Source: Giardia intestinalis
Taxonomy: Eukaryota
Strand: one strand, 5' to 3'
Length of the DNA stretch: 64,000 bases
Assembly (NCBI GenBank): GCA_000002435.2
Contig: CM018792.1
The notes under the pieces were generated by a model. It saw nothing but the letters and a program-made list of their open reading frames with translations. It was not told the origin of the DNA and searched no databases. A program made the position numbers and the translations under genes. Shown here one piece after another: positions 7,681 through 56,232 of the stretch (within the stretch, counting starts at the first letter, position 1; the number at the start of each line of letters is the position of its first letter).

Positions 7681-10600
7681 CTAGACGTCATCTTCTGCTA
7701 CCACATATAAGCTATTGACCTTGATAATGTCACGGAATATTGCATCGTGGACAGCAGTTAACCGTGCCTTCAAACGCTCGTCCCCAATGACTTCCACCGC
7801 GATTATTAGCTGGTCGACAAGGTTTATTAGACGCCTGAACATCCTTACTATGTTCCCTTCGAATTGGCTCCGGTCTATGTCGAGGATCTCCTGAAATGTC
7901 TGACCTGCCGCCCATGAAAAAGCAATTACCGCTGTGGTGTCGTCCACGATGTGATCAACTGTTGTGCAGCGCAACTCTAACGTTGTGTCCTCTGTTGCAC
8001 AATCCTTTAGCAACATAGATACAATCTGTTTTAGCTTCGTCAACGCTTGAGACAGCTTCGGGTCCATCTGGAGTTGGTTACTCTTCGATGATCCCGATGC
8101 TCCAGTTCCCTCTCCGAGAAGGGAGGCCAAGACGCCAGCGAGGACTCGTGGAGTTAGGTCAGTGAATTGGGCCTCAAACAGACACTCAACGAGTATTACC
8201 TCATTTGCAGAGCTAACATGACATGCAACACGCCCCTTGTCTGTGAGAAGGTATGCAGCTTCGCTATCTGTGGCCCCAGGAATTTCTTCTATGAAGTGTT
8301 CACGGCGCAAGAAGTTTTTCAACTTTACCAGCTCTGAGCTCAGTATAAGGTCGTCGGCTTCTTGGATATATTGCTTAAATATCTGCTTTTTGGCATCTCG
8401 TCTCATACAATTGAGCATGAGAGAAAAAATCATACCCGATACCTCCAGCTGACCGGAGGCATCCTCATCATGTGGAGAGTTATCGATGTATTCCTTCACC
8501 ATTTGATAAACAATCAGCTGTTCTTCTTTTAATGCCTGCTCGTTGGTGTCTTCCATGCGCGTCGAAATCTTAGCATAAATTGCAGGAGAGCACACGGCAT
8601 TAAGCACTCTATGTAGAGTGGGCGCACTGTGTGCTGGTGATGAGAGTATACGCGTCAGAATCCCATATTCGTTGTCGCAAGTGATAGCATGTTCAACTAA
8701 CTTTATGTTACAGTCTAGATCGTTAACCTCTGATGTAACGTCGGCATAGGCCAACTCAGAAAGGTTAACGTGCGGCTCCATAAGATCAGCTAGAGTAGAG
8801 GGGAAGCTGTGAGATTCGTCTGATGGTATGAGAGAGGCTATCATTTGATAATAGAAAAACATTGCCTCGGACTTATCATCATACCTAGAAAGGCTTTCCG
8901 GTATGGTCTTTAATATCTTTCCAGAAGCCCTTCGGATTGCTCTCACCGGAACGCGAACAATTACACAAGCTGTTGCTTCTATTTCGCTCCAGAGATGTTC
9001 ATGCAGCTTTCCTTTCATCTGCTTCTTCTTAGACGATGCCCCACACTTGTCGATTGCTGTCAGGACACTGAGAAGGACGTCTCGAGGAGCAAGCATCTGA
9101 TAGGACGCCTTGTTTTCACGCACGAATGGCTGGAGAGGATCAATGAACGAGTACTCATAAAGATTTTGTGGGGTGATGGACTCTGAGGAGTCATTAGCGT
9201 AAATGAGGTCATTTATATCTGCATGTGACACTTTCTGCTTTTCGACTGGTTTGGAACCTACCTTTCGAAGTGGCCTCCTTTTTACAGGGGGTTGACTCTC
9301 GTCAGCAGATGCGTCTTGGGCATCAGCTGGGCTATCCTGCTTTTGCAAGGTCGACATATATTCTTGATAGTATGGCTTGTTAATTAGTGCAGCGTGGGCA
9401 AGCTCTTTATCAACTCCTCTCGAGCTAAGCGAAGAAGGGACGGTGTCGCTAAACGCAATTAAGTGTGTTTCTGAAGCATTAGTGTACTTCGCCGGGACGG
9501 AGCCGAGAGAACAGGGAACCAAACAATCCACAAAGCTGTCAGAGCCTAGTCTTGTAACTTTCAGGACTGGTACCCACCCCAGGTCCAACCCATCGGCATG
9601 CACATGAACTATTCGTCCGCGAACTAATAACTGCTTCATAGAGTCTTGGGACAACAAACGAGACCAATCCACATAGTAACTAGTCTTGAGTGCAAAGAGA
9701 TTAACATACTCAGTCAAGAGACCGTATAACCTTTGAGCATCCCAAGATGCTAGGTTTGCAAGTGACTGAAGCATATCTGGACCAAAGAATTGAGCGAGCT
9801 GCTCATACTCTCCGAAGGCTCTATGCAGGACATTAAGTATGCTTAGTAAAAGTCTGCCCAGTTGCGTTTTATCTACGGCATTGGCATTCTCTAGTGCAAG
9901 GATCTTGTCTATGCAGCGCGGCAACCTAAATAACTGCTGGAACTGCAAGAACGACCGCTTAATCACCTGCTCAGGAGAGGTATCTTCTATTTGCATCAAT
10001 TTAAGGACACTATTAAAAGAGAGTCTATATGCACTGTTTAGTGGTTCAGTGGTTCCTTGAATTACCTTTACAATGTTGTCACATTCGTCTGCTGTGCTGA
10101 ACATGCATATTGACATGCCCTGTTTGTCTATTCCTCGCCGGCCAGCGCGACCAGCCATCTGAACATACTCACCAGCAGTCACTAATCTGGAAGTCAATCC
10201 GTCGAACTTTTTAAATTCAGAAAAAATAATCGCACGAGCAGGAAGATTCAGGCCCATAGCGAATGTTTCGGTCGCATACAGAATCTTCACTAGCCCCTCA
10301 ACAAACAGTATTTCTATAATCTCCTTTGCCCAGGGAAGTAACCCTGAATGGTGGACTGCGATTCCTCGTCGTAACATGCCACGAAGAACGACAATAGGTC
10401 TTAAGTTGCGATCTTCTTCTGGAAGGCACTTGAGCGCTGCGTCAAATATATTATCTATAACACGTGTTTGTTCAGGAGTCACCAAGCTCTGTATAACGGG
10501 AGGCTGCGCTTGAGTGGCCTGCTGGTTATCCTGTGGAATCAATGCCTGGGGTTCTTCACCGTAAGTCCGCTGCAAGGGTGGCCGGGAGGTGGCTCTTTGC

Positions 10601-12760: not shown

Positions 12761-14377
12761 CTACAGAAGATATACATAGAGGCTATACTGGCACAGTACT
12801 ACGAGAACACTTAATCCAGCATGGGTAATGATATTACAAGCAGTGATCATACTAGACCAGAGAGCTGGCTTTGGAGTCAGGAAGTGGGTACAGGGAGACG
12901 CTATGTGTGTGAACCCGACTCTACAAATATCTTTGGACAAACAGCATAATGACTGCTTATATGCACGTTGCGCTAAAGCCAATTCAGCACATGTGCATGT
13001 CCTAGTAGTTATGTGTGCAGAAACATGTGCGTGTATTGACTCTGATTTGCCGTCTGTATGGTTAGAAGTGCCTATAGTACCTATATACACTCCTCTTGTT
13101 GTTATATGCTGACCTGCGTGGCAGGGTCTGCGGAGCTTTCGCTCCACGTACCTATGGAGCAATGCTCTGAGCTTTTGCTCCATCTCCGTCGCTCTAAGAG
13201 TAGGTTTGCTTTGATCACATGTATATTCCTGCGCAACCCTAGAGATAATAGTACGCAAGAGATTCGCCTTCTGTGTGGGAGGCATGCTTACACCTGAGTC
13301 TGGTCTACATGCTTCTATGGCCTCTTGAAGCCCCCTGTCGAGGATGGCCTCGTGTAGCATGTCTTTCAGCGATCGAAGCTGGCGCTGGTTGCTGTGTTGA
13401 TGGCCGGTTTCAGAGATGCAAAGGTAATAACCAACTGGCACGTCAATTGCCCCTGAGAGATCATTACCCAGCGCAAAGCGTAAGCCGTGTAAGACGCACC
13501 TGCTGTCCATTGTTTCTCGAAAGTAAAACAGGAACTGTGTTGCACCAGTGTAGTAATCGGAGGACGAGCTGCCCCTCGTCAACAACGGGGTAAGTGGAGT
13601 TAGTTGTTTCTTCTCGACGTCAAGCTCAAAGCAGCACTTGCTTGTGAGACTGATGATTAGACTTTCGCGACAATTCCCGTAATCTAGTCTGTGCAATTTC
13701 ATACACTTTTCTATGGTAACTGGGGGCAAAACCAGCTCCTTCAGGGCCTTGCCACGTACTTCGTAACTTCCTATGTCCTGTTTACCTATCAATCTGAGAA
13801 GATTGCTCGTACTATGAATGTATAAAAAGCTGTGCTCAAAGATCCATAATTGGTGCCTATCAGTGATTGAGATGCAAATTCCACTACGCCCAAGTTGGAA
13901 GTATGCATCCAGATCACCAATCTTAGTCACCTCACAAGCAAACAGCGGAGAGCTCCTGCTGAAGCTAAAAATGACGTAACTGTCTAGCATAAGCAGTGAG
14001 CCAGGGGCATTCAGGCAACGACTGCAGCTCTCCTCGGTAAACATCTGAACGCGAGCTACTCCGGAGTATGTGTATTCATTGGTGCTAGAATTATAGATAC
14101 TGAGAAAGGGTGCTTGGCTAGTATATGATAAAATGAGTATGTTTTGGGCGAACATTTGAGCGTTCAATATATTGCGGCCGCTCAGCTGCAAAAAGGGTTC
14201 AAGGACTGTTCGCTGTGAAAGGGCTAAGAATAGTTGAGAGATTGAAAACCCTGAGACCTGCAGCTCAGAAAAGAACAAGATATGCGTATCAGTTGCACTG
14301 GAGCGAGTACAGCCTTCCAAGTGTCGCCAACAACCAGCAGCATCGGGCTGCAGGATCAGCTTACGATTGCAAGACAT
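12761..14377 (-). CDS. Hypothetical protein (~539 aa), no recognisable domain.
   Basis: A 1.7-kb uninterrupted reverse-strand ORF. The ORF-track start at 14467 is TTG. The first ATG is at 14375-14377 and lies 28 bp from the divergent neighbour's ATG across an AT-rich spacer. The C-terminal ~80 aa are Cys/His/Thr-rich and low-complexity, so the end is less certain. Confidence 0.55.
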   Translation of the reverse strand: MSCNRKLILQPDAAGCWRHLEGCTRSSATDTHILFFSELQVSGFSISQLFLALSQRTVLEPFLQLSGRNILNAQMFAQNILILSYTSQAPFLSIYNSSTNEYTYSGVARVQMFTEESCSRCLNAPGSLLMLDSYVIFSFSRSSPLFACEVTKIGDLDAYFQLGRSGICISITDRHQLWIFEHSFLYIHSTSNLLRLIGKQDIGSYEVRGKALKELVLPPVTIEKCMKLHRLDYGNCRESLIISLTSKCCFELDVEKKQLTPLTPLLTRGSSSSDYYTGATQFLFYFRETMDSRCVLHGLRFALGNDLSGAIDVPVGYYLCISETGHQHSNQRQLRSLKDMLHEAILDRGLQEAIEACRPDSGVSMPPTQKANLLRTIISRVAQEYTCDQSKPTLRATEMEQKLRALLHRYVERKLRRPCHAGQHITTRGVYIGTIGTSNHTDGKSESIHAHVSAHITTRTCTCAELALAQRAYKQSLCCLSKDICRVGFTHIASPCTHFLTPKPALWSSMITACNIITHAGLSVLVVLCQYSLYVYLL

Positions 14378-18759: not shown

Positions 18760-21700
18760 ATGGCCGCTATGCTAAAAATTAAGGGTGTTCACTTCCAGTT
18801 TCCGTTTGAGCCATATCCCTCGCAGATAGAGTATATGAGTTCCCTTATTACGGCCCTGAATAAGAAGGAAAATGCCTTGTTGGAAAGCCCGACAGGCACC
18901 GGAAAGACACTTTCTCTGCTTATTCCCGCAATAGCTTATCAGGAACAATGTATTAGCTTTCTAAGTCTAGTAACCTCGCTTTTGAAGAAGTGCAAAGCTG
19001 GAGCAATCATAGCAGAGCCTACTGGAGCACCTACGTTATCTAGCAGTGCACCGCTAATGCCGCCAGACGTGGGTAAGCTTTTAGAGTGGACAGATCAAAC
19101 GTTAGACTTTCGAGACAGTGTCATCATAGATAGCAAGCTCAAAAATATAAGGCTCAATGATACAGCTAGGTGGGTAGCAGAACGACCTCCACCCAAGATT
19201 CTTTATGCTGCCAGGACCCATGCACAGATAGAACAGGCCATAAGACAACTAAAGAAGCATGTGACCATCTCTGATGCATCAGGTGACAGCAGATCTTTCT
19301 TATTATGGCCTATCGCCATGCTAGGAAGCCGCCGTATATTCTGCATAAACGAAAGAGCACACACTTATGCTGCAGCTGCAAATATCACACTAGGTATGGC
19401 ATGCAAGAAACTTTGCGACGACAGACAGTGTAGATATTACTCTAGTGACGGAGATAGTGATGATCTTGCACAGAAATACAGGGAGTATTACTGTGAGAAT
19501 AGTAATGGGCGATTGGATGATTTAGAAGACTTCCTGGGATACTGTAAGAACGAATCAAGGTGTCCATACTATTTGGGAAGAGCTCTCGTGCCACAGGCTA
19601 GGGTGGTTACTGCCCCTTATAACTATATACTCTCCAGTAAGAACAGGACATCCGAGCTTTCTTCTATGCTTCGAAATAGCATACTCCTTGTAGATGAAGG
19701 TCACAATATCGGCCAAGCATGCTGTGATACTTTTTCTGGCAGTGTTACTACTGACGCTCTTTTGAAGGCCTCCGAGGAAATTCAGTACTTACAGAAGGTA
19801 GCAGCAGCACAGCGGATGGGACCCGGTAATAAGGCTGCAACAATAGAGTTAGAGGGAAATTGGCTTTCAAAGACTAATCCTTGTGGACCCGCCACCTCCT
19901 ACACAGGGCTCCATGAGCCCAAAACAAAACTTATTCGGCAGTCAGTGACACGCCTCTACAGCTTATCGGATGCTCTGCCGCCGCAATCAGACATTGATGT
20001 GATATTCAATTTGATTAACCTCGTTTCAAAATACTTTGTAGACAAGCTTGCAGAGATAAGTGGGAATGCGCCCTTCAGCTTTGCCGTTCACGATCTTTCT
20101 AAAAAAGTTTATGAGCTGCTCTTGGCCACAGACTTCGAGTCTGGTGACCATAGTGCACCGTCAACACGTGTCTCTAGAGCGGCAACCGATATCGAAACTG
20201 CCAGATTCTATCTTTCGTCAAAGCCTATAGCAACTCATACAGATGCGGTCCAAACTTTACGCAAGAAACAGCAGCAGTTCTCCCTGTTAATTGACACCCT
20301 ATCCATCCTCATCCAATGTAACCCAGGCCTAGCGCCAGAGTATGCAGACAAGCCCTTACATTTACTAGAAGCAAGTGATTTCATATTGGCAATCAGTGAC
20401 ATCATGGTCTACTCTCAAACAGGATCTGAATTTTGCTTTGTTGTATCCAAACAGAAAGAAAATGACACTATTTCTAAACCAGCTAAGCCCAAATCTGCAT
20501 GTAGAATGAGTGAAGTTTTGAATAACGTCATAAGGAAGCATTCGGCTACTACAGTGCCGGCCATATCTAGCCAGGCTGGATGGCAAGTGCACCTACTCTG
20601 TATGACTCCAAAATCCATCCTCAAAACCATAGTCCTAGGGGAGAGTGTGCATTCTCTCGTCTTGACAAGTGGAACCCTAGCGCCCTTCTCGGCGCTCCAA
20701 GCAGAGCTTGGATTGTCTTTTGGCATATCTGTATCATGTCCTCACATAGTGCCACCCAGTAATTACTTATTTAGGGCTATCACGGCTATAACAGGAACTC
20801 CGTTATTGGGTATATATAAAAATAGGGAAAGCAAGTCATATCAGAAACAGTTAGGGTATGCTCTCCAAGCATGCGTACGTGGTGTGGTGGGAGGAACCCT
20901 GGTGTTCTTTCCATCATACAAGTATATGGCGCAGGTTCTGGATTCTTGGAAAGCGGACGGTACTGAAGCAGAGCTTAAGTCTAGCACCCATGGAGATCCT
21001 CGTGACCTGTTTGTCGAACCATTGAGGCAGCAAGATTGTAACGCAGTGATAAAGAAGTACAGGGATAGCTGTGACGCAGGACGATCCCCGATACTTTTTG
21101 TGATTTGCCGCGGAAAACTAGCTGAAGGAATTGACTTCAGCAACAACTACTGCAGATGCGCCCTTGTCATATCACTCCCCTATCCAAACATCTCTGACCC
21201 TCTGCTTAAGGCAAAAATGGATTGGCTTGACAAGCACTCTGTTCTGAAGGGAGGTGACTGGTATTCTGTACACGCATATAGGAGTGTCAACCAGGCGTTA
21301 GGCCGTGTCCTACGACACAAAGACGACTACGGATGCATGTTCCTCCTAGATCAAAGGTACTCCATAGAGATAAGCAGAAAGCAGCTCTCCGGATGGCTGG
21401 CTGATCAACTTGTTTCTACAGAACTGGCTGGGACAGGCGTACAAACGGAGAAAATATTTGCAGAAACACGCGCCTTTTACTCTAAGCGCACATTGTCTTC
21501 GTCCCCAGAAAGTGCGAAAGGTAGTAATCCATTTGACAGGATGTCAACTACAAGAAAGCTAGAAGAGCCAATATTTAAAACAAAGGACGAATTGGGCCTT
21601 TTGATGCAAGAGTTTTCCAATCCATTGAAGATTAAAAAGGCTACGGAACATTCTACTGCAATCTTGGATGAAACATCATCGGCTACTTATCAGCTACTGA

Positions 21701-21939
21701 CGAAGTTCAAGGGAAGGCTTACGGAAGTAAGATACAAGCAGCTAAAAACTCTTCTGCGTGATGTACAGTTGGTACAGAAAAGCGACCAAAAGAGAGTTCA
21801 GAAACTATGCAGTGATCTGGCAATTTTGCTGTATAGCCGTACTTTCTCCCAAGAGGTGAGTGACCTACTCAAGGTTCTAGAGCCTCACGTTGCGTCGGAA
21901 CTAGAAACCCAGATCAGATTCCTACAGAAACGATCTTAA
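18760..21939 (+). CDS. Rad3/XPD-family iron-sulfur DNA helicase, RTEL1/FANCJ/CHL1-like, 1059 aa.
   Basis: The N-terminus is ...KIKGVHFQFPFEPYPSQIEYM...LLESPTGTGKTLSLL (Walker A), which is typical of RTEL1/FANCJ. Motif Ia is ILYAARTHAQIEQ. A Cys cluster (CKKLCDDRQCRYY...C...CPYY) fits an FeS domain, and the DEGH box is LLVDEGHNIGQAC. A second ATG at 18769 (MLKIKG...) may be the real start. Confidence 0.9.
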   Translation: MAAMLKIKGVHFQFPFEPYPSQIEYMSSLITALNKKENALLESPTGTGKTLSLLIPAIAYQEQCISFLSLVTSLLKKCKAGAIIAEPTGAPTLSSSAPLMPPDVGKLLEWTDQTLDFRDSVIIDSKLKNIRLNDTARWVAERPPPKILYAARTHAQIEQAIRQLKKHVTISDASGDSRSFLLWPIAMLGSRRIFCINERAHTYAAAANITLGMACKKLCDDRQCRYYSSDGDSDDLAQKYREYYCENSNGRLDDLEDFLGYCKNESRCPYYLGRALVPQARVVTAPYNYILSSKNRTSELSSMLRNSILLVDEGHNIGQACCDTFSGSVTTDALLKASEEIQYLQKVAAAQRMGPGNKAATIELEGNWLSKTNPCGPATSYTGLHEPKTKLIRQSVTRLYSLSDALPPQSDIDVIFNLINLVSKYFVDKLAEISGNAPFSFAVHDLSKKVYELLLATDFESGDHSAPSTRVSRAATDIETARFYLSSKPIATHTDAVQTLRKKQQQFSLLIDTLSILIQCNPGLAPEYADKPLHLLEASDFILAISDIMVYSQTGSEFCFVVSKQKENDTISKPAKPKSACRMSEVLNNVIRKHSATTVPAISSQAGWQVHLLCMTPKSILKTIVLGESVHSLVLTSGTLAPFSALQAELGLSFGISVSCPHIVPPSNYLFRAITAITGTPLLGIYKNRESKSYQKQLGYALQACVRGVVGGTLVFFPSYKYMAQVLDSWKADGTEAELKSSTHGDPRDLFVEPLRQQDCNAVIKKYRDSCDAGRSPILFVICRGKLAEGIDFSNNYCRCALVISLPYPNISDPLLKAKMDWLDKHSVLKGGDWYSVHAYRSVNQALGRVLRHKDDYGCMFLLDQRYSIEISRKQLSGWLADQLVSTELAGTGVQTEKIFAETRAFYSKRTLSSSPESAKGSNPFDRMSTTRKLEEPIFKTKDELGLLMQEFSNPLKIKKATEHSTAILDETSSATYQLLTKFKGRLTEVRYKQLKTLLRDVQLVQKSDQKRVQKLCSDLAILLYSRTFSQEVSDLLKVLEPHVASELETQIRFLQKRS

Positions 21940-22989
21940 GCCGCCGTTCTCTCGTTTCTCAGTAACACCAACCTTATTAGCAAAGTATTGACCTACTGAA
22001 AAATATCTAGCTTAATGCATAAAAAAGCGTTCACCAATAATCTAACTTTCCAACGAAGTATAGCTATATGTACTTACAGAACTCGGTAGATTTATAGACT
22101 AGAAGTGTGGTTCCTTCAGAAGCATGCCCTCTGTACGTATTGATACAATAGTAACGAGTAACCACGTTTCTCGTCAATACGTGCAGCACAGAAATCACTA
22201 GAGCTTATAGAGAGCAACAATCCAAGTACGAAGATGGATATCTCACAGTTATGCGCCTCAAAGTAATGTTGATTCACTTGTGATATCCGAGGAACACAGA
22301 GCATGTGAGCTAGGCACACAGCAGAGAAACTGGTCGCTTTACTAGCTAAGCTGTCCGAGCAGACGTGCCTGTTGCCCTGCAGAAGACAACTGCTGCACTG
22401 CTCAGGTGGAGCGAGCAGCTGAAAGGCCGGTAGATAAGTGTCCCTTATCGCACCGAGGCTGTGGTGCGTGAACGGGGCGAGTGTGCCAATCTTGCTCGGA
22501 TACATGCGCTGCGACAGTCGAAGACGAGAGTCTATGTCTCCACACATAAGGGAAGCAACAAGTGAGTGCTGCAGCGCGCCCGACTACCGGTGCAAGGGGG
22601 ACGATGAGGCACCTCTGGCTGCGTTAAGGATGACAGCGTACAGCAGCCCTAGCTCCCGAAGAAGGCCTTTGAGAGCAACCGAGACTCGGGGGCTGAACAA
22701 GGGGCAGCATGGTGCGAAGGGCTAACAATTTAACCCGGATTGACTCTAGTGCAACACAACGGTTCTCTCGGACCGCTCTTTGCAGCTTGGGATCCTGGGA
22801 AGCGAAGAGACCAGGAAGTCAGGTCATATCCTTACGACCGCAGGCACAACAGAGGACTGTGCAGGCACCCATTCGTCACACAGGGTAGTAAATCGTTAAG
22901 GGGGCTCAAGACAGTTGAATCCCACCAGATCTCTCAGCCGACAGCCAGAATGGCGGGTGTCCCCCTACGTTCCACCAGGCAGCGTCAAA

Positions 22990-23460
22990 CATAGCAGAGG
23001 TCTGCCGGAAATGCACCAGATGCAGTCAACGCTTTTCTGGGTGTAGTGTTAACAGAATCACACACTACGATGCGCCTCAGACAGGCTCCACCTGGCAGCG
23101 GCGCCCCAGAGACGGGCCCCGAGGGACAAAGTATCTCCGGCCCTGTCCCTGCTCCAATGCGAGGGGCCTGTAGACAGAGCCGAGGATGGGGGCCAGTGCT
23201 CGGCCTCCTGCTGGTGCGGTGGCGCCGGGAGACCACCGGACCATCGACTCGGCCGCGGCAACCGGCGGAGCGCCCTGGGCTGCTGCTGTGTCCACACGCC
23301 TGGAGCGCGCCGCAGCAGCCCGGGATGGGTCCGCAGACAGGCGTGCCGCCCCAGCCGTCCCGGGGGCCGGCTCCTCGTGGCGGGCGGTCCTGCTCCCTTT
23401 GACTTTTCAAATGGAGAACGCAGTTATGGACCCTAGCTCTGCTGCAGAAGGTGCCTTATG
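22990..23460. other. Very GC-rich (~70%) apparently non-coding block inside a ~2-kb gene-free spacer (21940-23972).
   Basis: Overlapping ORFs run on both strands and encode Pro/Gly/Arg-rich nonsense (for example 23046-23402 on + and 22985-23410 on -). No protein-like periodicity or Cys pattern is present. This contrasts with the <150-bp spacers elsewhere in the window. Confidence 0.5.
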
Positions 23461-23972
23461 AGACGCAGCACAATCACACCAAGCGGTATTGGGGCTGAGC
23501 ACTCCTTGGGACGGGCTCTTGGCGTATCTGAGAGACGCTCGTTGCTGTGCACTGCCTCTTGGGCCTTGGATGCACGTTGTGCAGAGCTGCAGGAGTCGCC
23601 CTTGCAGTTGTCGGTGGGCCGTTGATGGAGCCATTGAAAGCTCTGGACCGCTACTGGACCGTACTGTCCCAGTGCACGTGTGGCAGCTTTGATTCGCACT
23701 GGATGATCCGTACAGATTGCAACGGAGCCACGAGGTGCACTAGTATGACATACGCATTGAGACAGTCGCAGTTCTGTTCGGCTCAATCCACCTCCTTCTG
23801 GCCCTGTGCCGAGATTGCAGATTGCAGAGTAGTGTCAGCGATAGACCCGGTGAGTGTTGATTCCATCAGCGCCTGTGGTCAACGTGCGTCCGAAGGATCA
23901 ATCAACTGCATCAATCGACGCGGATTGACTGATGTACCGCGAGTATGTTCCTACCAATCTATCAATCGGGCA

Positions 23973-26186
23973 ATGTTTGGCAGTTTTGTTCTCGCGGGGG
24001 TACTCGCTCAGATTGCATGGGCAGGAAAAGCAACAGAGCGCGCGGCTCACTGCGCAGATAACACTAATTGCGCAGCAGACGCATGCAACGTTCTGATCGG
24101 TGGTAAATTGTATTGCTCTCGATGTAACACAGGATTTGTTCCTATCAATGGACAATGTGCAGACAAAGAAGGTGCAACAGATAAGTGCAAAGATGGCTCC
24201 GGAGGCGATACAGCTGATCAGACCTGTGGACAGTGCGCCGAGCAGACTTTCATGTACAAGGGCGGCTGTTACGAAGCAGCCCAGCAGCCCGGACAGACCA
24301 TGTGTCAGGCGGCAGATGCTGGAGTATGCACACAAGCCGCGCAAGGATACTTCGTGCCGCCGGGCGCAGACGCCTCTCACCAGTCGGTCATACCATGTGG
24401 AGACGAAGAGGAAATAACAGTTAAAAACGATAAAAAGTACAAGGGCGTGCTGCACTGCACTCGGTGTAACGCTCCCACAGAAGCAGCAGATGCTAACGCC
24501 AAGGCCGCCACGTGTACTGCGTGCGGCGATAGCAAGATCGTCAAGACAGCCAAGGACTCAGCCACCTCCTGCGTGACAGAAGAAGAGTGCACCGGCACCG
24601 AAGGGTTCTTCGTGAAAAATGGCGGCACCAAAACCTGTGAGGCGTGTGATCCTGGTTGCAAGACCTGTAAGACCGAGGCTGCGAAGTGCACCTCCTGTAA
24701 GGACGACAAGCCGTACCTGAAGAAGGATAATGGCAGCGACACTGGCACGTGCGTCACCGAAGCTGAGTGCAAGACTGGAAACACCCACTACCCCGACGAC
24801 ACTGAGCCGAAGACGTGCAAGACGTGCGCCGAGGGGACCTCCGACGGGTGTGCGACGTGCGAGAAGGGCGCCGATGGAGCAGTCGCCTGCAAGACGTGCG
24901 GGTCTAATAAGAAGGTCCAGCCAAACAAGAAGGGGTGCATAGCAAAGTGCCCGGAGACGGTGAGTGCCGAGAAGGATGGCGTTTGTGAGTGCGTCGAGGG
25001 CTACGTTCCCGACAACGCGGGCACCGGGTGCACGAAGAAGCCCGACCCCCAGTGCAACACCCCCGGCTGCAAGACGTGCAGTGAGCCGAAGACAAGCAAG
25101 GAGGTGTGCACAGAGTGCGAAGACCCCAAGGCCCTCACGCCCACGGGCCAGTGCATCTACGGTTGTGAGCACCTGGAAGGCTACTACGAGGGCACCAGCG
25201 AGGGGGGCAAGAAGGCCTGCAAGAAGTGCGAGGTCGAGAACTGCCTCCTGTGCAACGGGCAAGGACAGTGCGAGACCTGCAAGGACGGGTACTACAAGAG
25301 CGGAGCCGCCTGTGCCAAGTGCAATACCTCGTGCAAGACGTGCGCGAACGGGAACTCCAACGGGTGCACGAGCTGCGAGCCTAAGCAGGTCCTCAGCTAC
25401 GAAGGAGAGGGCACGGGGACGTGCAAGCCAGGCTGCAAGCCAGTGAGCGGCGGCAAGGATGGAACGTGCAAGAGCTGCGACCTGAACATAGACGGGACAA
25501 GCTACTGTTCTGCCTGTAACGTGGGCACGGAGTATCCAGAGAACGGCGTGTGCGTCAAGAAGTCGGCCCGCACAGCCTCCTGCCAGGCAGAACCGAGCAA
25601 TGGTGTGTGCGGGACATGTGCAAGGGGCTTCTTCCGCATGAACGGGGGCTGCTACGAAACGACCAAACTCCCTGGAAAGAGCGTCTGTGAGGAGGTAGCA
25701 TCGGCCGGCGATACCTGTCAGACTCCGGCCGACGGATACAAGCTGAATAATGGCGCGCTCATCACTTGCTCGGCCGGATGTAAGACGTGCACCAGCCAGG
25801 ACCAGTGCGACACGTGTAAGGCTGGATATGCTAAGGATAGTGGTAACACTAAGAAGTGTGTTCCCTGCGCCACTGGGTGCTCCGAGTGCAATGCGGACGA
25901 CGCCACCAAGTGCACGGTGTGCGCTGCAGGGTACTACCTGTCCAAAGAAAAGTGTATAGCATGCGACAAGAGCGACGGGGGATCCATCACCGGCGTCGCC
26001 AACTGCGCTAGCTGTACTCCCCCAACCAACAATAAAGGGTCTGTCCTCTGCTACCTCATACAGAACACCAACAAGAGCGGTCTCAGCGCGGGCGCTATCG
26101 CGGGGATCTCCGTGGCTGTCATCGTCGTTGTGGCTGGTCTCGTAGGGTTCCTCTGCTGGTGGTTCATCTGCAGAGGCAAAGCGTAG
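23973..26186 (+). CDS. VSP: Variant-specific surface protein (VSP), ~737 aa.
   Basis: The signal peptide starts MFGSFVLAGVLAQIAWA. Dense CxxC modules run throughout (for example CKTCKTEAAKCTSC and CATCEKG), with GGCY motifs. A C-terminal TM helix is followed by the invariant tail ...GLVGFLCWWFICRGKA* (stop 26184-26186). The open frame extends upstream to 23547 through GC-rich sequence without VSP character. I call the start at the signal-peptide Met, nt 23973. Confidence 0.9.
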   Translation: MFGSFVLAGVLAQIAWAGKATERAAHCADNTNCAADACNVLIGGKLYCSRCNTGFVPINGQCADKEGATDKCKDGSGGDTADQTCGQCAEQTFMYKGGCYEAAQQPGQTMCQAADAGVCTQAAQGYFVPPGADASHQSVIPCGDEEEITVKNDKKYKGVLHCTRCNAPTEAADANAKAATCTACGDSKIVKTAKDSATSCVTEEECTGTEGFFVKNGGTKTCEACDPGCKTCKTEAAKCTSCKDDKPYLKKDNGSDTGTCVTEAECKTGNTHYPDDTEPKTCKTCAEGTSDGCATCEKGADGAVACKTCGSNKKVQPNKKGCIAKCPETVSAEKDGVCECVEGYVPDNAGTGCTKKPDPQCNTPGCKTCSEPKTSKEVCTECEDPKALTPTGQCIYGCEHLEGYYEGTSEGGKKACKKCEVENCLLCNGQGQCETCKDGYYKSGAACAKCNTSCKTCANGNSNGCTSCEPKQVLSYEGEGTGTCKPGCKPVSGGKDGTCKSCDLNIDGTSYCSACNVGTEYPENGVCVKKSARTASCQAEPSNGVCGTCARGFFRMNGGCYETTKLPGKSVCEEVASAGDTCQTPADGYKLNNGALITCSAGCKTCTSQDQCDTCKAGYAKDSGNTKKCVPCATGCSECNADDATKCTVCAAGYYLSKEKCIACDKSDGGSITGVANCASCTPPTNNKGSVLCYLIQNTNKSGLSAGAIAGISVAVIVVVAGLVGFLCWWFICRGKA

Positions 26187-26192
26187 ATGTAC

Positions 26193-26207
26193 ACTTAGGT
26201 AGTAAAT
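26193..26207 (+). terminator. VSP extended polyadenylation signal ACTTAGGTAGTAAAT (consensus ACTYAGRTAGTRAAY).
   Basis: An exact match to the VSP-specific extended poly(A) motif, including the general Giardia AGTRAAY core, lies 7-21 nt after the VSP stop codon. Confidence 0.8.
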
Positions 26208-26446
26208 GCGTCGATGAATTCTGTTTGTAGGTCTGACTCGGAAGTTGCATGAATAACTCAATCTGGCTGTATTAGGAACAGGGACAAACCACAACTAATA
26301 GGTTAAAGATTTTCTTCTTCAGTTTTGAGCTCAATTCCAGGGTGGTCTCTGGATCTCTGAACTTGATACGCTGGCCCCCGGGTTTGACGACAGTACTACC
26401 TCCCGTCTCAAAAAGCATCACAAAGTGGTTTACAATCACCGATCAG

Positions 26447-40700: not shown

Positions 40701-43700
40701 TTCGGAAGTGAACAGTGCCCTAACAAGATTGCCTGGAGTGATCGTTGTCTGAAGGAGACAGCTCAGGGCGGGCCATCCGGTGGCTGCGCTCATGAGGATA
40801 TCCATTGAGGAAAGGATAGTAACGCAAGAGGGCTCTATGAGGTACTTTTTCATAAGAGACTCTCCTTGCTCCAGCAGGCCCTTCATTCCGCCACCTTGTT
40901 CAAAACGATGAGCGAACTCAGACATTGTGCCGCAATTCTTATTGAATGTGTGCATAACATAATGCTCCAAGTGACCTGGAACAGAAAGTATAGACGGCAA
41001 ATGAGTGTGCAGCAGCGGCTCATCAGTGTACATGCAAGTGAAGGCGGCCCCACTAGAAACCCCAGAATCAAAGTACTTTGTACTGGGAGTGCGCAGAAGA
41101 CTTTCTGCAAGCGGGGCCAGCAATCCAAATTGACTGATGCTGTGGGCAGTTGTATGATTGATAGTATACAAAAAGTAAATCGGGTTAACACCTGCAGCAA
41201 GACAAACTGCGGTTCTCAGTAGCATAAGAGTAGCGAGAAAGTCAGAATCAAAACTAGATAGATACGCAGAAAGTTCCAGCACAGCTATTGACAGATTCTT
41301 CACAAAGCTCTCCGCCGTGCGGTTAGAGGGCTTGTCAGTGCTCTTCTCCTTTTCGCCTGCAGACACATGACTAACTGAGGCTACGATCGTGTCAATGTCA
41401 ACAAGAACACGATCATTCAGTCGGCCTCGACAATCCTTGGCAGAGCCTCCGCATACTGGTGAGCCCTTGGTTCTAGAGGAAAGCAGTTGATCGGATGCAA
41501 GTGAAAGCGCAGGGGTATCATTAGAATAATTACTTAAGTAAAGGTGTTCAAGCTTCAGATCTAAAAATGATGTGTAGCCCTCCAATGCTTGGAGCAGATA
41601 TGAAATTTGTTGAAAGTGCTTGTAGTCAGCAAATGGTGTGTATAGTCTATAGCAGGGAATAGTGATTATAGAAGTAGACAAGTTAATAGGCAGTAGCGGA
41701 GTTGTGGGCCATTGAACAGGAAGATAGTTGTGAGGTAGAATGACAGACGACGAGGCAGGCTGCAAACTGAAGGAGTCCTTGAGGTCCGATAGCCTGAGGT
41801 CCAAAGAGACCCCAAAATTAGACGGCCTTTGTGGCTCTTTGCTCATTGGAGGTTCTTTTTCAGTAAGAGCAAGAGATAATAGGCATGGTGAATCAGTATG
41901 CAGTGAAAGCAGCTCGTCGATGATATGGTCAGTGGCTTCATCGGAAAAGCTTCCAGAAGTGGTATGGGCTTGTATGACTCTGTATGCATCAATGTACTTT
42001 CCAGAAGATTCTGTGGGCCAGTCACGCATAGAATTCAGTATCAGCCTGCTCAGCTTTGCTGGTGACATCAGCATGCCCCACAAAAAGAGCTTCCACAAGC
42101 ATGAATACAAGTTATGGGTGGGGTGAATGCATGGAAGAGGAGAACGTAAATACTCTTGAAGACACGATATAACTTTCACAATATGCTCTCCCATGGCTTT
42201 TGATTCTGTGTGCATTTCAAAGACACGGAGAGCCAGAGATGGGCTTATGTACCGTGGGGTATCTGGTGGAGGGATATGTCTCATCTTTGCCTCGGCAAGC
42301 TGGCGATCGTACGCCACATGTTCAAGATATAGGTCAGCTGTGAAGAGCTCAAAGTAACGAGGGAACCTTTGAAGCCAGTCTAAGTTGATATTAATGCATC
42401 CACATGCGCAGCCGACCTCCAGTGGATTGACCTTGAATTGCGAATAGATCTTAGATGATAGAGGGGCTGCTGAATCAAATCTTTTAGTATCCTCTCGACG
42501 AGGAAGAGACTCAACTGAATTAACCAAAGAATTATCATCTTGACTGACTTTCTGAAAGAGGATGCCGATCAAGTAACATAGTCCATCTGGTATCCCGGCG
42601 ACAGCAGCACTGCAAGTATTGTAGAAGGCTCTTAAATCATGCATCTCTGTAGTTAGTTCTTTAGCTCTGGGTACTTGTGAAGGCTTGCTCTCATCATTGT
42701 TCTCTGATTGGCCTGTAGTTGGTGGCTGACCATCGTCTTGTTCCAATGCTCTACGATCTTCTTTATTGTGCGCTTGCAAATAGGTCTCAATCACATCAAC
42801 TTGCCACTGCGGTGCTAACGCTTGCAGGCTGCATATGTTGAGCGCTCGAGCACCAATAGCAGGAAGTAACCCGTCCAGAATGGATACCAATTTGGCATTG
42901 GACATACTAGGAACATTCCGAAGGGCAGCAGCAAGAGCACATACGGTGCAGTGCGCATAAGCTTCCCTAATAACAAAGGCTTCAGTCTCTAGAGCCGAAG
43001 AAGAAGGCAGCTGAGGAAACCAGAATAGACAGCGCTGTAGATCAGCGAGAAAATCATAATTAGAAAAAAGGTCTGGGTAGCTAGAGAATAAAAATGATAC
43101 GGCTTTGTTCAGCATCTCATAGCAAATGCTTCTATTTGAGGAAAATGCTAATTGGACCAAGGATAGAACGTGGTCTAGGGTTAATTGTGGTAATGATACG
43201 GTGATTTTGTCTATTGTTTCTTTACATGAATGAGTAGACAAGCGAGTGTCGTGTCGTCTTTCAACTATCAACGTGGTATTCATAAGGCTGAACTCTCCAA
43301 CAATGTGAGACCCGTCTCCAAGTGTCCTTTGCCTAGGAGGTGCCGAAGCTGACAGCTGTGCTAGTTGGGAGAAAAGTGAATCCCGGTCATCCTGTTTAGA
43401 AGTGTTTGGTACGTGTAGCACGCCAGCAGACCATCTGGATAACTTATTCAGAAAAAGGGCAGCTGTGCCCTGCTTATCGTAATAAGAATGAAATGCATTA
43501 CAGATCTCACCAGCAGAAGCAGTAGCAGTCTCGGTGAGACGGGCCCACGGACCAAAGGTGTCTTGCATCAAAAGTTCAGCTATCTCAATCAGTGATGTCT
43601 TGCCCATACTTTCATCTCCGCAAACCTCTAGAAACACACCCGAAGGGTAGAGCATCGCTGAGGTGGAACATGCAGCAATAAGCACCACTATTGCGGTGCG

Positions 43701-52700: not shown

Positions 52701-55700
52701 ACCATGGTCTATTTTTGCGGCTAAAGTCCTCCGTCCACGCTTGAGGCGTTTAATTGCTCTGCGCTCCAGTAGATGTCGCTGATCAGAGACGTCGGTGTTG
52801 GCAATAATAGTACTGGTGAAGAGGCTTGTGAAATCCAAGAGAAGTGGATACATTGCAGCCGAAAGGTGTCTTGCAGCAATCAGGAAGGTATCTGGAAGAG
52901 TTCGAAATGGACAGGATAGCACGATACGTAGTTGTTGCTGCAAACCTACGCGTGATGGGTTGTAACTTAGTCTAGCATAATCCTTTTTTACAATTAGTCC
53001 AAACACGTCCTCCATGCGGGGGGCTTGACACTCTAACGGGAAGCCCGACTCAGCCAACTTCTGTAAATGGGGAATTGCCATATATTGATGCTTTATGCAG
53101 GCTTCAACATAATCGTCATAGGAATCCGTAGGTCTCGGGGTAGGAAGTAAGATCTGTCGAATCAGTTCGTTAGTCACGGTTAAATTACGGCCCGCCTGAC
53201 GTGTATTAGCGCGAGATACAGCTCTTGAAGCGGTCTCTCCTCTATGGCGAATAGCCGAACTATAGTCTTCTTCAGAGTAATAGTGCTTCTGAAATTCTAA
53301 ATTAATCAAGTAGCTTATTGTACGATAGTAACATTTCCCAGCGATAATTGTAAGCTGAAAGGGTACTATGCTTCGCCAATAAAGAAAGAAGAGGGACTTA
53401 ATGCATAAAAGCTGATCTGTGTGCTCGTGAAGGAGGATTTTAACGATGAGATTTGCCGCCAGTACAAGCTTATCTAGTACCTTAGTGTAATTATAGCTAC
53501 GTAAGTGAAGAGCGCTCTTGAGGTATGTGCTTGCCAGTTCTGACAATAAGCCCCGGTCCTCTGGGCAAACGTTTCCAAGTCGTGTCTGGAACGCATCACC
53601 TTCTGTGTTACAGTCACAAACACATTGCAGGTGTAAGCCAGAAAGGTCGGAAACATCTGTTCTTAGCTGCAGGAGAAGCTTTTGTAGCATTGACGCAATC
53701 GCGGAAAACTCGCTGTTGAAGAAATAGTTGGTCAGTTGGCCTGTTCTGGAACAAATGTCCTGCAGAGCAGGTAAAGCAGTGGACCGATAAGTACAGCCCC
53801 AGGTTACACAGTTTCTTAGGGCAGTAACGGCCTTAAAACGGGCTATCAGGCTTGATTGTCGATCCAAGACAGACATGAGAATGGGTTGATAGCGATCCTT
53901 TAAGGCACTGGAGAAGTGGTCGAGACTGTCCGATGCATTCAGCTCATCTCTAATACAAGTCAAAGAGTATCTCGAATAGTAAGAATGCAGCGAGACAGGA
54001 GCATATCGCAGTAGGCCAAGAACATTCAACTGAGTAGATATCTGTAGGCGCCGATCCTCTGGCATCGTGAGCCAGTTATCCCCTACAGACAAGAGAGTAG
54101 AAAGACTTATTTTCTGAACCCCTGCAAGGTGCTTGTTGTGGACCGCAGTAAGATGGAGTTTATATTCATGCAAATAATCCACTTGCAATTGCCTCAAGCG
54201 CTCGGGGAAGATGCCCATGGCTTGCGCCACAGAGTTAATGCGCCTCAACGTTCTGAAGAAAACGGGGTGTTGCAAATATCCAGTGTCCAAGGTGATATCG
54301 TACGAAGAATCAGCCTTGGAAATTTCCCAGTTGCAAATTGTATAGAAATTCTCCTGGGGCTCAGGGATAATGGTCTTAACAAAATCATTAGCGAGGGCAT
54401 TGGAGAGCTCGGATTCAACAACGTCCTTTGCTGAGAAAAGCTCGTCGATGGAGCATTCGGAATCAGTTACAATTGGGATGCTTGATAGCCTTTGAGGAAG
54501 AGAACTGGCTCTACACTGCCTTCTAGACTTCAAACTAGAGTGAAACATGTTCCTGGCACGCTTCTCGATCGTTGTGCGTTGAAGAGTGAAGTCATCCATT
54601 ATGCTTCCAAGCGTCTTGTCCTGGCCACAGCTGAGGGATAGATCATGTAAAGCCGTCACACTCCCTGATAGTGCAGATGTCTGAGGAGTCATATTAGACA
54701 AGGCTTGCCTAGCGTTCATTAAGTGCCGATCGTGATATGGAGAGGTGTTCCTGTTAATTCCATGAAGATTGACACTAGAGGAGTGGAGCAGGGCTTCTCT
54801 GAACTGAGGGGAAGCACGAGAAGAGGAATCTAAAAGGGGGTTCCGTATGACCTCCATACTTTGTCTAGTAAACGGATTGGTGACCGTAAAAAGTGCCTCA
54901 TTGATGCTGGAAGGCATCAGAAAAGGGTTAGCGCCATAATCAACAGGGTATTCTTCTTCTAATAGACGCATGCTTGGAAGTAGGGTCAGACGAGACACGG
55001 GAACACTATATGTTTCCCTATGAAGAACTAAGTCAGACTTTTGCAATCTGGCTTTGTAGAATGCCAATTCATCAGGTAGATCCAACAAGCTCGTCTCTGG
55101 AATTGTCGTTGCACTATTTGATTTGGCAACAAGATGTACATCCACACTCGCTCTATTGAGCCGCAGATCTAGTGACTCCAATGTTCCCACAAGAAACTTT
55201 ACACTCATCTGCGAAGTGATGCTCTCGCGCATTTCTGAGCAGTGTGCATGCATTGTCGACCTCGCTGGTGCTGCTGGCACATACAAGGACAGCGAATTGA
55301 CTGTCGGGGTGTCCAGGTTATGAATTAGAACGAGCTGAGCATCACATCCGTTATTATCATAAGCAGAAGGCAGAGATGGAAGGCAAACCTGCAGACCTAC
55401 ATCAATTTCCTTCAGCTCTTGGCAACGAGCAAACGCAGTGCGACGCCCATCAGGGCTAGCGGATAAAGCTGCAAAGTTACTAGATAGGATCCCCGAGGAT
55501 CCTGACTCTCTGTTAGACAGGTTGTTGGACCCTAACAAAAGTGGCCGTGGTCGAGTCGACGCATGGTGTGTTGATAAATGGGCCCTGAGCGGAGCGGATG
55601 GACTCTTAAGTGAAGATGTAGAAAAGTCTTTGGTTAACCGTATCGGAGCCATTGATGGGCCTCCGTGAAAAGTAAGATGCTTTAAAAATCGGACTTTTTT

Positions 55701-55706: not shown

Positions 55707-56184
55707 GTCCCAGTCCTACACTAGACGCATTCTCGGGGACATGCGGCGGATGTCAGAGTACAATGGCATCTTCGCCACGGTGGACCCCAACAACATATCC
55801 CTCTGTGACGCTGTGGTCATTGGCCCCTCCAGCACAATCTGGGAACATGGCGTCTTTAGGCTTAAGGTGACATTTACTAATAATTATCCTGCCGAGCCAC
55901 CAGCGGTAAGATTTCTCTCAAGCATTTATCATCCCAACGTCTACAAAGACGGGAAGATATGCCTTGACATCCTGACCAAAAAGGAGTGGAAACCTGTATA
56001 TGATTTGGGTACTGTGCTTACCAGCATACGCTCGTTACTCTGCGACCCCAATCCCAAGGATCCCGCTAACTGTGATGCAGCATATGAGTACATATACGAC
56101 AGACATCTGTACGAAATGAAGGTGCGTGAGTGCGTGCGCAACAGCTGGCTGAACCCTTACGATGTCTACAAGAAAGAAGAGTGA
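55705..56184 (+). CDS. RAD6: Ubiquitin-conjugating enzyme E2, Rad6/UBC2 (UBE2A/B) family, 159 aa.
   Basis: MSQSYTRRILGDMRRM... matches the MSTPARRRLMRDFKRL-type N-terminus. The active site is PPAVRFLSSIYHPNVYKDGKICLDIL (compare UBE2A [26 protein letters not shown]). The C-terminal ...VRECVRNSW is Rad6-like. The track start at 55699 is TTG and the first ATG is at 55705. Confidence 0.9.
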   Translation: MSQSYTRRILGDMRRMSEYNGIFATVDPNNISLCDAVVIGPSSTIWEHGVFRLKVTFTNNYPAEPPAVRFLSSIYHPNVYKDGKICLDILTKKEWKPVYDLGTVLTSIRSLLCDPNPKDPANCDAAYEYIYDRHLYEMKVRECVRNSWLNPYDVYKKEE

Positions 56185-56232
56185 GCAGATCTACCTGCTC
56201 GGCACGTCTGAGCACCTTAGGCTTCTCAGTCC

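Follow-up and report, generated by a model that had tools for sequence, protein, structure and literature searches.

The 2-kb gap in front of a Giardia intestinalis VSP gene is probably an extended non-coding flank, partly duplicated with related VSPs

A single long gene-free gap is found in the 64-kb stretch of Giardia intestinalis WB DNA analysed here (the window), directly in front of a VSP gene, and its length and composition raise the question of what it contains. The upstream helicase ORF stops at 21939 and the start codon of the VSP lies at 23973, leaving 2033 nt between them (21940-23972). The remaining intergenic gaps of the window range from -101 to 272 nt. A second apparent gap of 526 nt (55707-56232) was discarded, as it holds a ubiquitin-conjugating enzyme gene (PF00179, E 1e-42). 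These measurements agree with a preliminary description of the window, which had noticed a spacer of about 2 kb upstream of the VSP and had put the other spacers at 0-270 bp. The GC content of the gap is 55.4% against 47.3% for the window, and it is 52.5% over the 200 nt preceding the VSP. The composition is far from uniform. From 22400 to 23100 the GC content is 55-59% with more A than T on the + strand, and the richest 200 nt, which start at 23188, reach 78.5%, every other 200-nt interval of the 64 kb remaining below 68%. The stretch 22990-23460, previously said to approach 70% GC, is indeed GC-rich, although slightly less so (66%). The VSP that follows is 100% identical to the NCBI WB protein P0134, matches PF03302 and carries the CRGKA tail; its body is a mosaic of paralogs.

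The gap encodes no protein. It contains no ORF of at least 150 aa, the longest open stretch in any frame being 156 codons, and a Pfam search of the six frames of the gap in WB and in the assemblage E isolate P15 returned nothing relevant: the single match, to DUF2243, is below threshold (E 0.014, 16 bits for a cut-off of 25) and was taken as noise. Between WB and P15, the substitutions in the gap have no three-nucleotide periodicity (p 0.8-1.0), in contrast to the VSP coding sequence used as a control (68/74/120 per codon phase, p ~1e-4), and the indels are not multiples of three. In the GC-rich core (23100-23400), GC per codon phase is flat (0.76/0.73/0.73) and the WB-P15 substitutions are evenly distributed (24/27/24, p=0.89). 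A relic of lateral transfer from a high-GC source was ruled out because GC is flat over the codon phases. The only points in favor of a spliced or frameshifted gene spanning the gap are several overlapping ORFs of 90-143 aa and the minus-strand ORF of the GC-rich core (P0133), which gene callers annotated in some assemblies. However, the longest ORFs lie in different frames in WB and P15, so that no frame is kept between assemblages A and E, and a search of 5.8 billion protein clusters with P0133 yielded no sequence but its own copy. Together with the phase of the substitutions and the Pfam result, this search effectively refutes a protein-coding gene, whose probability is negligible. The earlier call of the spacer as non-coding is thus borne out by the flat codon phases, the absence of Pfam domains and the aperiodic substitutions.

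The same holds for the 142 codons that are open in the VSP frame upstream of the ATG (23547-23972), which the preliminary description had regarded as foreign to the VSP. They form the 5' part of a GTG-initiated ORF of 879 aa. In assemblage E (P15) the VSP frame is open for only 46 codons upstream of the ATG, the WB and P15 sequences differ by indels of 1, 11, 1, 1 and 3 nt, and the substitutions are spread evenly over the codon phases (44/41/38, p=0.80). The translated stretch is included in some NCBI 'partial' VSP models (P0146, P0138, P0143, P0147). Some public 'partial VSP' proteins therefore wrongly contain translated upstream DNA.

No structured RNA was detected in the gap either. The first candidate put forward earlier was one or more structured ncRNA genes (RNase P/MRP, telomerase RNA, snRNA or snoRNA), for which an Rfam search had been suggested. 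No Rfam family matches the gap at the gathering score when the whole window is searched, and with E values up to 10 the interval 21500-24500 yields three chance matches (a miRNA, an L31 leader and a flavivirus stem-loop), the best at E 0.41. The rRNA models (SSU, LSU, 5.8S, 5S) have no match even at E up to 10, which speaks against a fragment of the rRNA genes, and a tRNA scan found none. The 12-nt motif of Giardia ncRNA 3'-end processing, [TAC]C[CA]TT[TC][ATC][CTA]T[CTA]AA (PMC3510501), matches three times in the window, where 2.8 matches are expected by chance, and never within 21940-23972. A scan with bacterial-type promoter and terminator models, a model type not relevant to Giardia, stayed at chance level.

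Folding gave a similar picture. A stable fold is predicted for the GC-rich core (-222 kcal/mol), with marginal z-scores of -2.1 and -1.9, the two strands being alike; over the gap the z-scores range from -2.1 to +0.3, with -0.9 and -0.4 in 21940-22598 and an unremarkable -0.6 and +0.3 in 23761-23972. The stable fold of the core, and the possibility that Rfam misses the divergent ncRNAs of Giardia, would favor an ncRNA gene. Against it stand, besides the Rfam and motif results and the likeness of the two strands, an unfavorable covariation term (+3.3 kcal/mol), in which the seven compensated pairs are far outnumbered by pairs disrupted in one or more copies (about 44), and the distribution of the region, which is missing in a B-like lineage and present in several copies beside VSPs. 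The ncRNAs known in Giardia are conserved in all of WB, GS and P15 (PMC3510501). An ncRNA gene is thus very improbable and this reading is already close to refuted. Annotation of the gap with ORFs or ncRNA genes is inadvisable.

On comparison with other isolates, the gap splits in two (Table 1). The part adjoining the helicase gene is private to the locus, whereas the part adjoining the VSP (22599-23972) belongs to a repeated module that travels with a subfamily of VSP genes. In comparisons with paralogous loci, 21940-22598 reaches 46% identity, which is the random level. The interval 22599-26214, in contrast, aligns with the CAP-Gly locus copy L012 (reverse strand) at 91.1% over 3631 nt and with L013 at 92.8%. 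The left boundary at 22599 is sharp in the alignment and the L012 homology ends on the right at 26214; between L012 and P15, homology begins about 35 nt further left. In addition, 22961-24127 is 91.9% identical to positions 9077-10245 of the DH contig AHGT01000020 (L014), where the module lies in a head-to-head VSP pair near STT3 with a spacer of 1994 nt (56% GC, peak of 76% GC). The helicase-locus copy of DH is itself 95.2% identical to L014 over 1643 nt, and the DH genome consequently has two module copies. At these two other loci the module precedes the related VSPs P0136 (L012) and P0143 (L014), with 91-95% identity. Its outer boundary differs by locus, at 22599 or at 22961, and the VSP alleles begin to diverge where it ends, just after the signal peptide. 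The VSP coding sequences that follow the module are mosaics. Further copies are probably present in WB itself, judging by DH, by ENA assemblies and by paralogous VSPs of WB with the same N-terminus. Three short-read contigs (L008-L010) end at about 22559, so that contig breaks fall at the edge of the module. Searches for direct, inverted and tandem repeats within the region gave trivial matches only, and two metagenome scans with module motifs found nothing.

Table 1. Features of the gap and of the adjoining VSP gene (positions in the window)
Feature	Position	Strand	Remarks
Locus-specific non-coding part	21940-22598	.	Alignment restricted to this locus in DH, L007 and P15
AT-rich 3' flank of helicase gene	21940-22300		Within the locus-specific part; 37-42% GC
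Fast-evolving, indel-rich stretch	22301-22598		Within the locus-specific part
Outer part of the VSP-linked upstream module	22599-22960	+	Common to the CAP-Gly locus copy, missing at the STT3 locus
Core VSP-upstream module	22961-23972	+	At least three loci: helicase-PK, CAP-Gly, STT3 head-to-head VSP pair
GC-rich core of module	23100-23400	.	74% GC, peak 78.5%; non-coding, without supported RNA structure
142-codon open stretch in VSP frame	23547-23972	+	Chance open frame, non-coding
Conserved proximal upstream region of VSP	23761-23972	+	Putative promoter/regulatory region
VSP initiator CAatgTT (PyAatgTT) around start codon	23971-23977	+	Read from sequence
VSP gene with 28 nt of 3' flank (remainder of the duplicated unit)	23973-26214	+	737 aa, stop at 26186

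Comparison of isolates indicates which portions are under constraint. Four-fold degenerate sites are 97.7% identical between WB and DH and about 72% between WB and P15 (about 71% once orf568, which was read in a wrong frame, is excluded); blocks of the gap reach 90-97% and 57-78%, respectively. In the locus-specific part, the helicase flank and the stretch that follows it (22301-22598) are 96.4% and 90.0% identical between WB and DH, with 21 gap positions, and 74% and 69% identical between WB and P15. An insertion of about 750 nt is found in P15 only, whose version of the gap extends over 2.9 kb. In a B-like isolate (L004), the helicase gene is followed by PK after a spacer of 760 nt, with neither a VSP nor a long gap. 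Over most of the gap, divergence thus equals or exceeds that of synonymous sites, and indel lengths are arbitrary. Absence or lack of conservation in other isolates, which the preliminary description had held to count against its proposal, is largely what is observed over most of the length. Clear constraint is confined to the ~210 nt adjoining the ATG and to the PyAatgTT initiator (PMC2996952), a few short islands being conserved besides. This proximal region is 98-100% identical among four assemblage A copies (98% for WB-DH) and 81-84% identical to P15 (82% for WB-P15), above the ~72% of four-fold sites, and it includes two islands of at least 90% WB-P15 identity (23807-23836 and 23838-23879). 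The initiator, CAatgTT, is kept in all module copies and in P15 (five-copy alignment). The GC-rich core evolves like four-fold sites (97.0% WB-DH, 76% WB-P15). It has few indels, and islands of at least 90% WB-P15 identity lie in or near it (23005-23045 and 23165-23234), which could mean some constraint if four-fold sites are not truly neutral.

The origin of the high GC content of the core was also considered. Recent polarised substitutions in the core comprise nine from S to W and four from W to S, and the module as a whole is slightly less AT-biased than its flanks; both comparisons rest on small counts. Ongoing GC-biased gene conversion is not favored as the cause, W to S changes not being in excess, with counts too small to conclude.

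The association of the module with VSPs recalls another of the candidates proposed earlier, a recombination or epigenetic control region for the adjacent VSP, and this candidate comes closest: the right-hand 1.0-1.4 kb of the gap is co-duplicated with VSPs and ends where the alleles diverge, whereas a control function could only be inferred. Under one such reading, the distal part of the module (22599-23760, including the GC core) would be a functional cis element, serving chromatin or epigenetic control of mutually exclusive VSP expression, a dedicated recombination that favors cassette exchange, or as a template for a regulatory lncRNA or antisense transcript. This would fit the finding that the module has been kept in assemblage E and, at three loci, in front of related VSPs, the islands of WB-P15 identity and the onset of allele divergence right after the module and signal peptide. 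Epigenetic control via VSP upstream regions has been proposed, and a 100-nt VSP upstream region was found to be weakly active in cells expressing another VSP (bioRxiv 10.1101/2022.03.07.483299). Nevertheless, most of the module diverges at least as much as four-fold sites, large indels separate assemblages A and E, no conserved RNA structure was found and the outer boundary varies by locus. Co-retention is, moreover, equally expected from plain co-duplication without function. A functional distal element is accordingly quite unlikely. A related proposal, in which the ~1-kb module made of the GC core and the proximal 210 nt would be a dedicated cis element, either a gene-conversion homology arm building mosaic VSPs or a chromatin or lncRNA element in VSP choice, is likewise quite unlikely.

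The remaining candidate, a degenerate VSP/HCMP gene or a retroelement, would make part of the gap a decayed former gene brought along when the VSP cassette was inserted. Such relics are plausible neighbors, since retrotransposon remnants and pseudogenes are reported between or beside WB VSP genes (PMC7000408; bioRxiv 10.1101/2022.03.07.483299). The composition of 22400-23100 resembles that of a VSP coding strand, and P15 keeps about 1 kb more than WB, which would fit an ongoing deletion of dead DNA. Direct searches nonetheless gave no positive evidence. In the six frames of the WB and P15 gaps, Pfam has no match to reverse transcriptase, endonuclease, integrase or transposase domains, and none to the VSP family at E up to 10. 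The best tblastn matches with VSP queries (E 0.05-0.09) are noise, as is the outcome of tblastn with every protein of the window plus two VSPs as queries against four spacers with composition correction off, where only matches with E of at least 0.01 appeared. No codon-phase signal persists, and the only ORF product searched, P0133, has no relatives. A decayed gene is therefore unlikely.

The gap is best explained, with good confidence, as the long non-coding 5' flank that VSP genes with an initiator typically have. Part of it is a module co-duplicated with the gene, and the gap encodes neither a protein nor a detectable structured RNA. The locus-private part would consist of the helicase 3' flank and decaying sequence. 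The module of about 1.0-1.4 kb has been duplicated with the genes of one VSP subfamily, whose N-terminus reads MFGSFVLAGVL..., and occupies three or more chromosomal sites. Its proximal 210 nt and the initiator probably act as a promoter or regulatory region, and the rest would be largely unconstrained DNA that persists through carriage with the gene. Together with the signal-peptide codons, this DNA may passively act as the 5' homology arm when paralogous VSP loci exchange sequence by gene conversion, the other arm being presumably the conserved 3' end of the VSP gene.

Such an arrangement can be compared with that of the Trypanosoma brucei VSG genes, in which 70-bp repeats located upstream serve as 5' homology tracts of antigen-gene cassettes. 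In both systems, conserved upstream non-coding DNA and a conserved 3' end would surround a variable, exchanged coding body. The analogy is partial: the Giardia module is devoid of tandem repeats, and its role in recombination is inferred only. Moreover, VSP switching in Giardia is thought to be epigenetic or post-transcriptional rather than driven by gene conversion.

The closest counterparts are found in Giardia itself. VSP intergenic regions have a median length of 1280 nt and a mean of 2131 nt, compared with 79 and 392.5 nt genome-wide, their upstream GC content is 53.9% over 2 kb and 50.6% over 200 nt, and groups of VSPs have upstream sequence in common (bioRxiv 10.1101/2022.03.07.483299). 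Around VSPs, genes are sparse and sequence variation is higher (PMC7000408). The gap agrees with these 5' regions in lying directly upstream of a CAatgTT VSP (PMC2996952), in its length and GC content, in being non-coding and gene-poor, and in sharing its upstream sequence, with a divergent coding body behind a near-identical upstream region. Nothing essential sets it apart; its GC peak of 78% is at the high end, and the VSP stands alone among housekeeping genes instead of in an inverted pair or array. Duplicated WB VSP pairs, arranged head-to-head or tail-to-tail with 2-4 kb of shared intervening DNA, likewise have upstream DNA co-duplicated with the VSP, and the L014 copy sits in a pair of this kind. 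Here, in contrast, the copies are dispersed over several loci and are 91-95% identical rather than identical, and no reverse-transcriptase remnant was detected with Pfam in the WB and P15 gaps. The 2-kb gap is therefore genuine yet ordinary for Giardia, where a long GC-elevated non-coding flank normally precedes a VSP gene and is a feature already described in the literature. No new kind of element needs to be invoked, since both the long GC-elevated flanks and the sharing of upstream sequence have already been recorded across the genome of WB.

The regions upstream of VSPs are an obvious place to look for the means by which Giardia restricts expression to a single VSP and renews its VSP repertoire. 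For one VSP, the present analysis narrows this search: signs of constraint are limited to the ~210 nt nearest the ATG, and the rest of the gap has the character of freely evolving, co-duplicated DNA marking the limit of exchange between paralogs.

The gap between the helicase gene and the VSP gene is non-coding, mostly unconstrained, and in part a repeat that is scattered over several loci together with VSPs of one subfamily; its proximal 210 nt and the VSP initiator are constrained. In this window, which comes from Giardia intestinalis WB, it extends for 2033 nt from the stop codon of a TFIIH/RTEL-like DEAD_2 helicase gene (21939) to the start of the VSP (23973-26186), whose product matches at 100% a WB protein in NCBI encoded on a 2.76-Mb chromosome. 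No ORF of at least 150 aa is present on either strand. The unusual length noticed in the preliminary description was borne out, as all remaining intergenic gaps across the 64 kb measure at most 272 nt when the 161-aa ORF at 55699-56184 (+) is counted as a gene. This ORF codes for a ubiquitin-conjugating enzyme (PF00179, E 1e-42), closes a would-be 526-nt gap and overlaps the start of a 6974-aa minus-strand gene by 8 nt. The GC content of the gap is 55.4% vs 47.3% for the window, and its richest 200 nt reach 78.5%, unmatched elsewhere in the window. The GC-rich core is present, although slightly poorer over 22990-23460 (66%) than had been described; the value for 23100-23400 is 74%.

The proposed lack of a protein-like gene was upheld. 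GC is flat across codon phases in the core (0.76/0.73/0.73). Six-frame Pfam searches (E up to 10) of both the WB gap and its 2.9-kb counterpart in assemblage E isolate P15 returned a single sub-threshold hit, taken as noise; tblastn, with every window protein and two VSPs as queries, gave only noise. Indels between WB and P15 are numerous and not multiples of three in length, and the two genomes have their longest gap ORFs in different frames. Substitutions are spread evenly over phases in the core (24/27/24) and in the 142-codon extension, i.e. the open stretch 23547-23972 in frame with the VSP (44/41/38), as against 68/74/120 in the VSP coding region used as control (p about 1e-4). A protein gene in the gap was thus rejected. 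A minus-strand ORF across the core, called by some gene callers, has one relative (P0133) in 5.8 billion protein clusters, itself another copy of the same DNA. Transposon relics were reported in some VSP spacers (Rodriguez-Walker et al. 2022, bioRxiv 10.1101/2022.03.07.483299), and descent of part of the gap from a decayed gene or retroelement would be compatible with a non-coding, partly repeated gap; it is nevertheless unlikely, since the Pfam and tblastn searches left the suggested VSP/HCMP or retroelement remnant unsupported.

The NCBI models of four 'partial' G. duodenalis VSPs (P0138, P0143, P0146 and P0147) begin in translated non-coding upstream DNA, and that of P0146 takes in the entire 142-codon extension. 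Translated upstream residues ...SINCINRRGLTDVPRVCSYQSINRA precede MFGSF in public partial models, involving positions 10001-10087 of L014, the STT3-locus contig of A2 isolate DH. These upstream starts are probably an annotation artefact.

Structured ncRNA genes had also been proposed and found no support. Rfam gave nothing at gathering score over the whole window and three chance-level hits only on the gap region, and ARAGORN detected no tRNA. The gap lacks the 12-nt 3'-processing motif typical of Giardia sno/snRNA genes (PMC3510501). Fold energies are unremarkable compared with shuffles: the two strands of the core score z = -2.1 and -1.9, the proximal 240 nt give z-scores of -0.6 and +0.3, and values in the AT-rich left part are -0.9 and -0.4. 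Across five core copies, the RNAalifold covariation term is unfavourable (+3.3 kcal/mol), with 7 compensated pairs vs about 44 that are disrupted in one or more copies. Exact matches to this ncRNA/trans-intron type motif occur in the window at 40805-40816 (-), 41534-41545 (-) and 63001-63012 (+), all within long ORFs and at chance level (3 vs 2.8 expected).

Orthologous loci were retrieved via the helicase. In P15, the order is helicase, 2.9-kb gap, VSP and pyruvate kinase. In a distant lineage (L004, helicase 72% identical), probably assemblage B, the VSP is absent and 760 nt of unrelated non-coding DNA (13184-13943, 43.7% GC), without detectable similarity to the A/E gap, separate helicase and pyruvate kinase. 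The gap and VSP are therefore lineage-specific. Between WB and DH, identity is 98.2-99.2% in flanking genes, 97.7% at 4-fold sites and 90-97% in gap blocks; between WB and P15 it is about 72% at 4-fold sites and 57-78% in gap blocks, and insertions of about 750, 150, 82 and 52 nt are present only in the P15 gap. Only 23761-23972 (98% with DH, 82% with P15) is clearly slower than synonymous sites, so that over most of the gap the rate of change equals or exceeds the neutral one. No GC bias was seen among recent substitutions in the core. Two WB-P15 islands of at least 90% identity (21981-22010 and 22083-22133) fall 40-195 nt beyond the helicase stop, within the AT-rich part private to this locus, and have no counterpart in the B-like spacer. 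In two more distant Giardia lineages (L005, ERR3333380; L006, ERR3333379; helicase 67-68% identical), contigs stop 54 and 204 nt past the helicase stop, and the region may be hard to assemble there too.

The right half of the gap is a VSP-linked module that recurs elsewhere. At the CAP-Gly locus, home of P0133, a CAP-Gly gene and 540 nt of unique AT-rich DNA are followed by a 91% match to window 22599-26214, which takes in 1.37 kb of gap sequence, the complete VSP and 28 nt past its stop. A third copy, on DH contig AHGT01000020, precedes VSP P0143, one member of a head-to-head VSP pair near STT3; this copy is 91.9% identical to window 22961-24127 and 95.2% to the DH helicase-locus copy, so that the DH genome holds at least two module copies. 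The paralogous spacers are about 2 kb each; they are AT-rich at the far end and peak at about 76% GC. The match boundaries divide the gap into three layers.

Layers of the gap defined by matches at paralogous loci
Layer	Window coordinates	Distribution
Locus-specific	21940-22598	absent from paralogous loci
Middle	22599-22960	common to one paralogous locus
Inner	22961-23972	common to both paralogous loci

Short-read contigs of many isolates terminate at the module edge or within it, as repeats would be expected to cause. The helicase locus is represented by two A2-type sequences (L007 14350-14823 and L011, the latter from DH) that are identical except for a 5-6% difference at window-equivalent 23101-23570. 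In this stretch one of the two matches the CAP-Gly-locus paralog at 98-99%, the result of either gene conversion or a switch between repeat copies during assembly.

Close relatives of the VSP all share the N-terminus MFGSFVLAGVL... The window 23973-26186 product was compared with P0135, P0137, P0136 and P0138. P0137, a WB paralog from a different chromosome, matches it at 100% over aa 41-160, 241-280 and 361-400 but at no more than 45% over aa 481-560, and P0135, a further paralog in WB, reaches 92-98% identity over aa 481-680. Such a segmental mosaic is a signature of gene conversion among paralogs. At the helicase-pyruvate kinase locus, the N-terminal half of the VSP in DH and P15 is unlike that of WB (23973-24600 vs L011 15234-15864 and P15 locus L003 from 16060 onward). 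The DH fragment shares 51% identity with the WB VSP and about 90% with P0138, P0143 and P0147. Between WB and DH, identity drops from 98% ahead of the ATG to 81% over the first 160 nt and about 60% beyond, placing the allele switch just past the signal peptide. The exchanged VSP body is bracketed by conserved upstream DNA and signal-peptide codons on the 5' side and by a conserved 3' end.

These features fit closely with published VSP flanks. Near-identical upstream regions were described for vsp genes with divergent coding regions (Adam et al., PMC2996952), and low gene density with greater variability was reported for VSP surroundings (Xu et al. 2020, PMC7000408). VSP intergenic regions have a median of 1280 and a mean of 2131 nt, vs 79 and 392.5 nt genome-wide, upstream GC of 53.9% (2 kb) and 50.6% (200 nt), and upstream sequence common to groups of VSPs (bioRxiv 10.1101/2022.03.07.483299). 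The present gap, with its 2033 nt, GC of 55.4% (2 kb) and 52.5% (200 nt) and shared module, is an instance of a feature already documented in the WB genome. The preliminary description's VSP control region was partly right: the right half is repeated with VSP genes, while the control role is only inferred. A genuine chromatin, recombination or lncRNA role of the distal module, which does travel with VSP genes and over most of its length diverges at least as fast as 4-fold sites, is improbable. With the gap read as largely unconstrained DNA and in part a VSP-linked repeat, the slowly evolving proximal 210-nt block would be the VSP regulatory region, and the distal module would have been kept through co-duplication with the VSP, where it may passively supply homology on the 5' side when paralogs undergo conversion.
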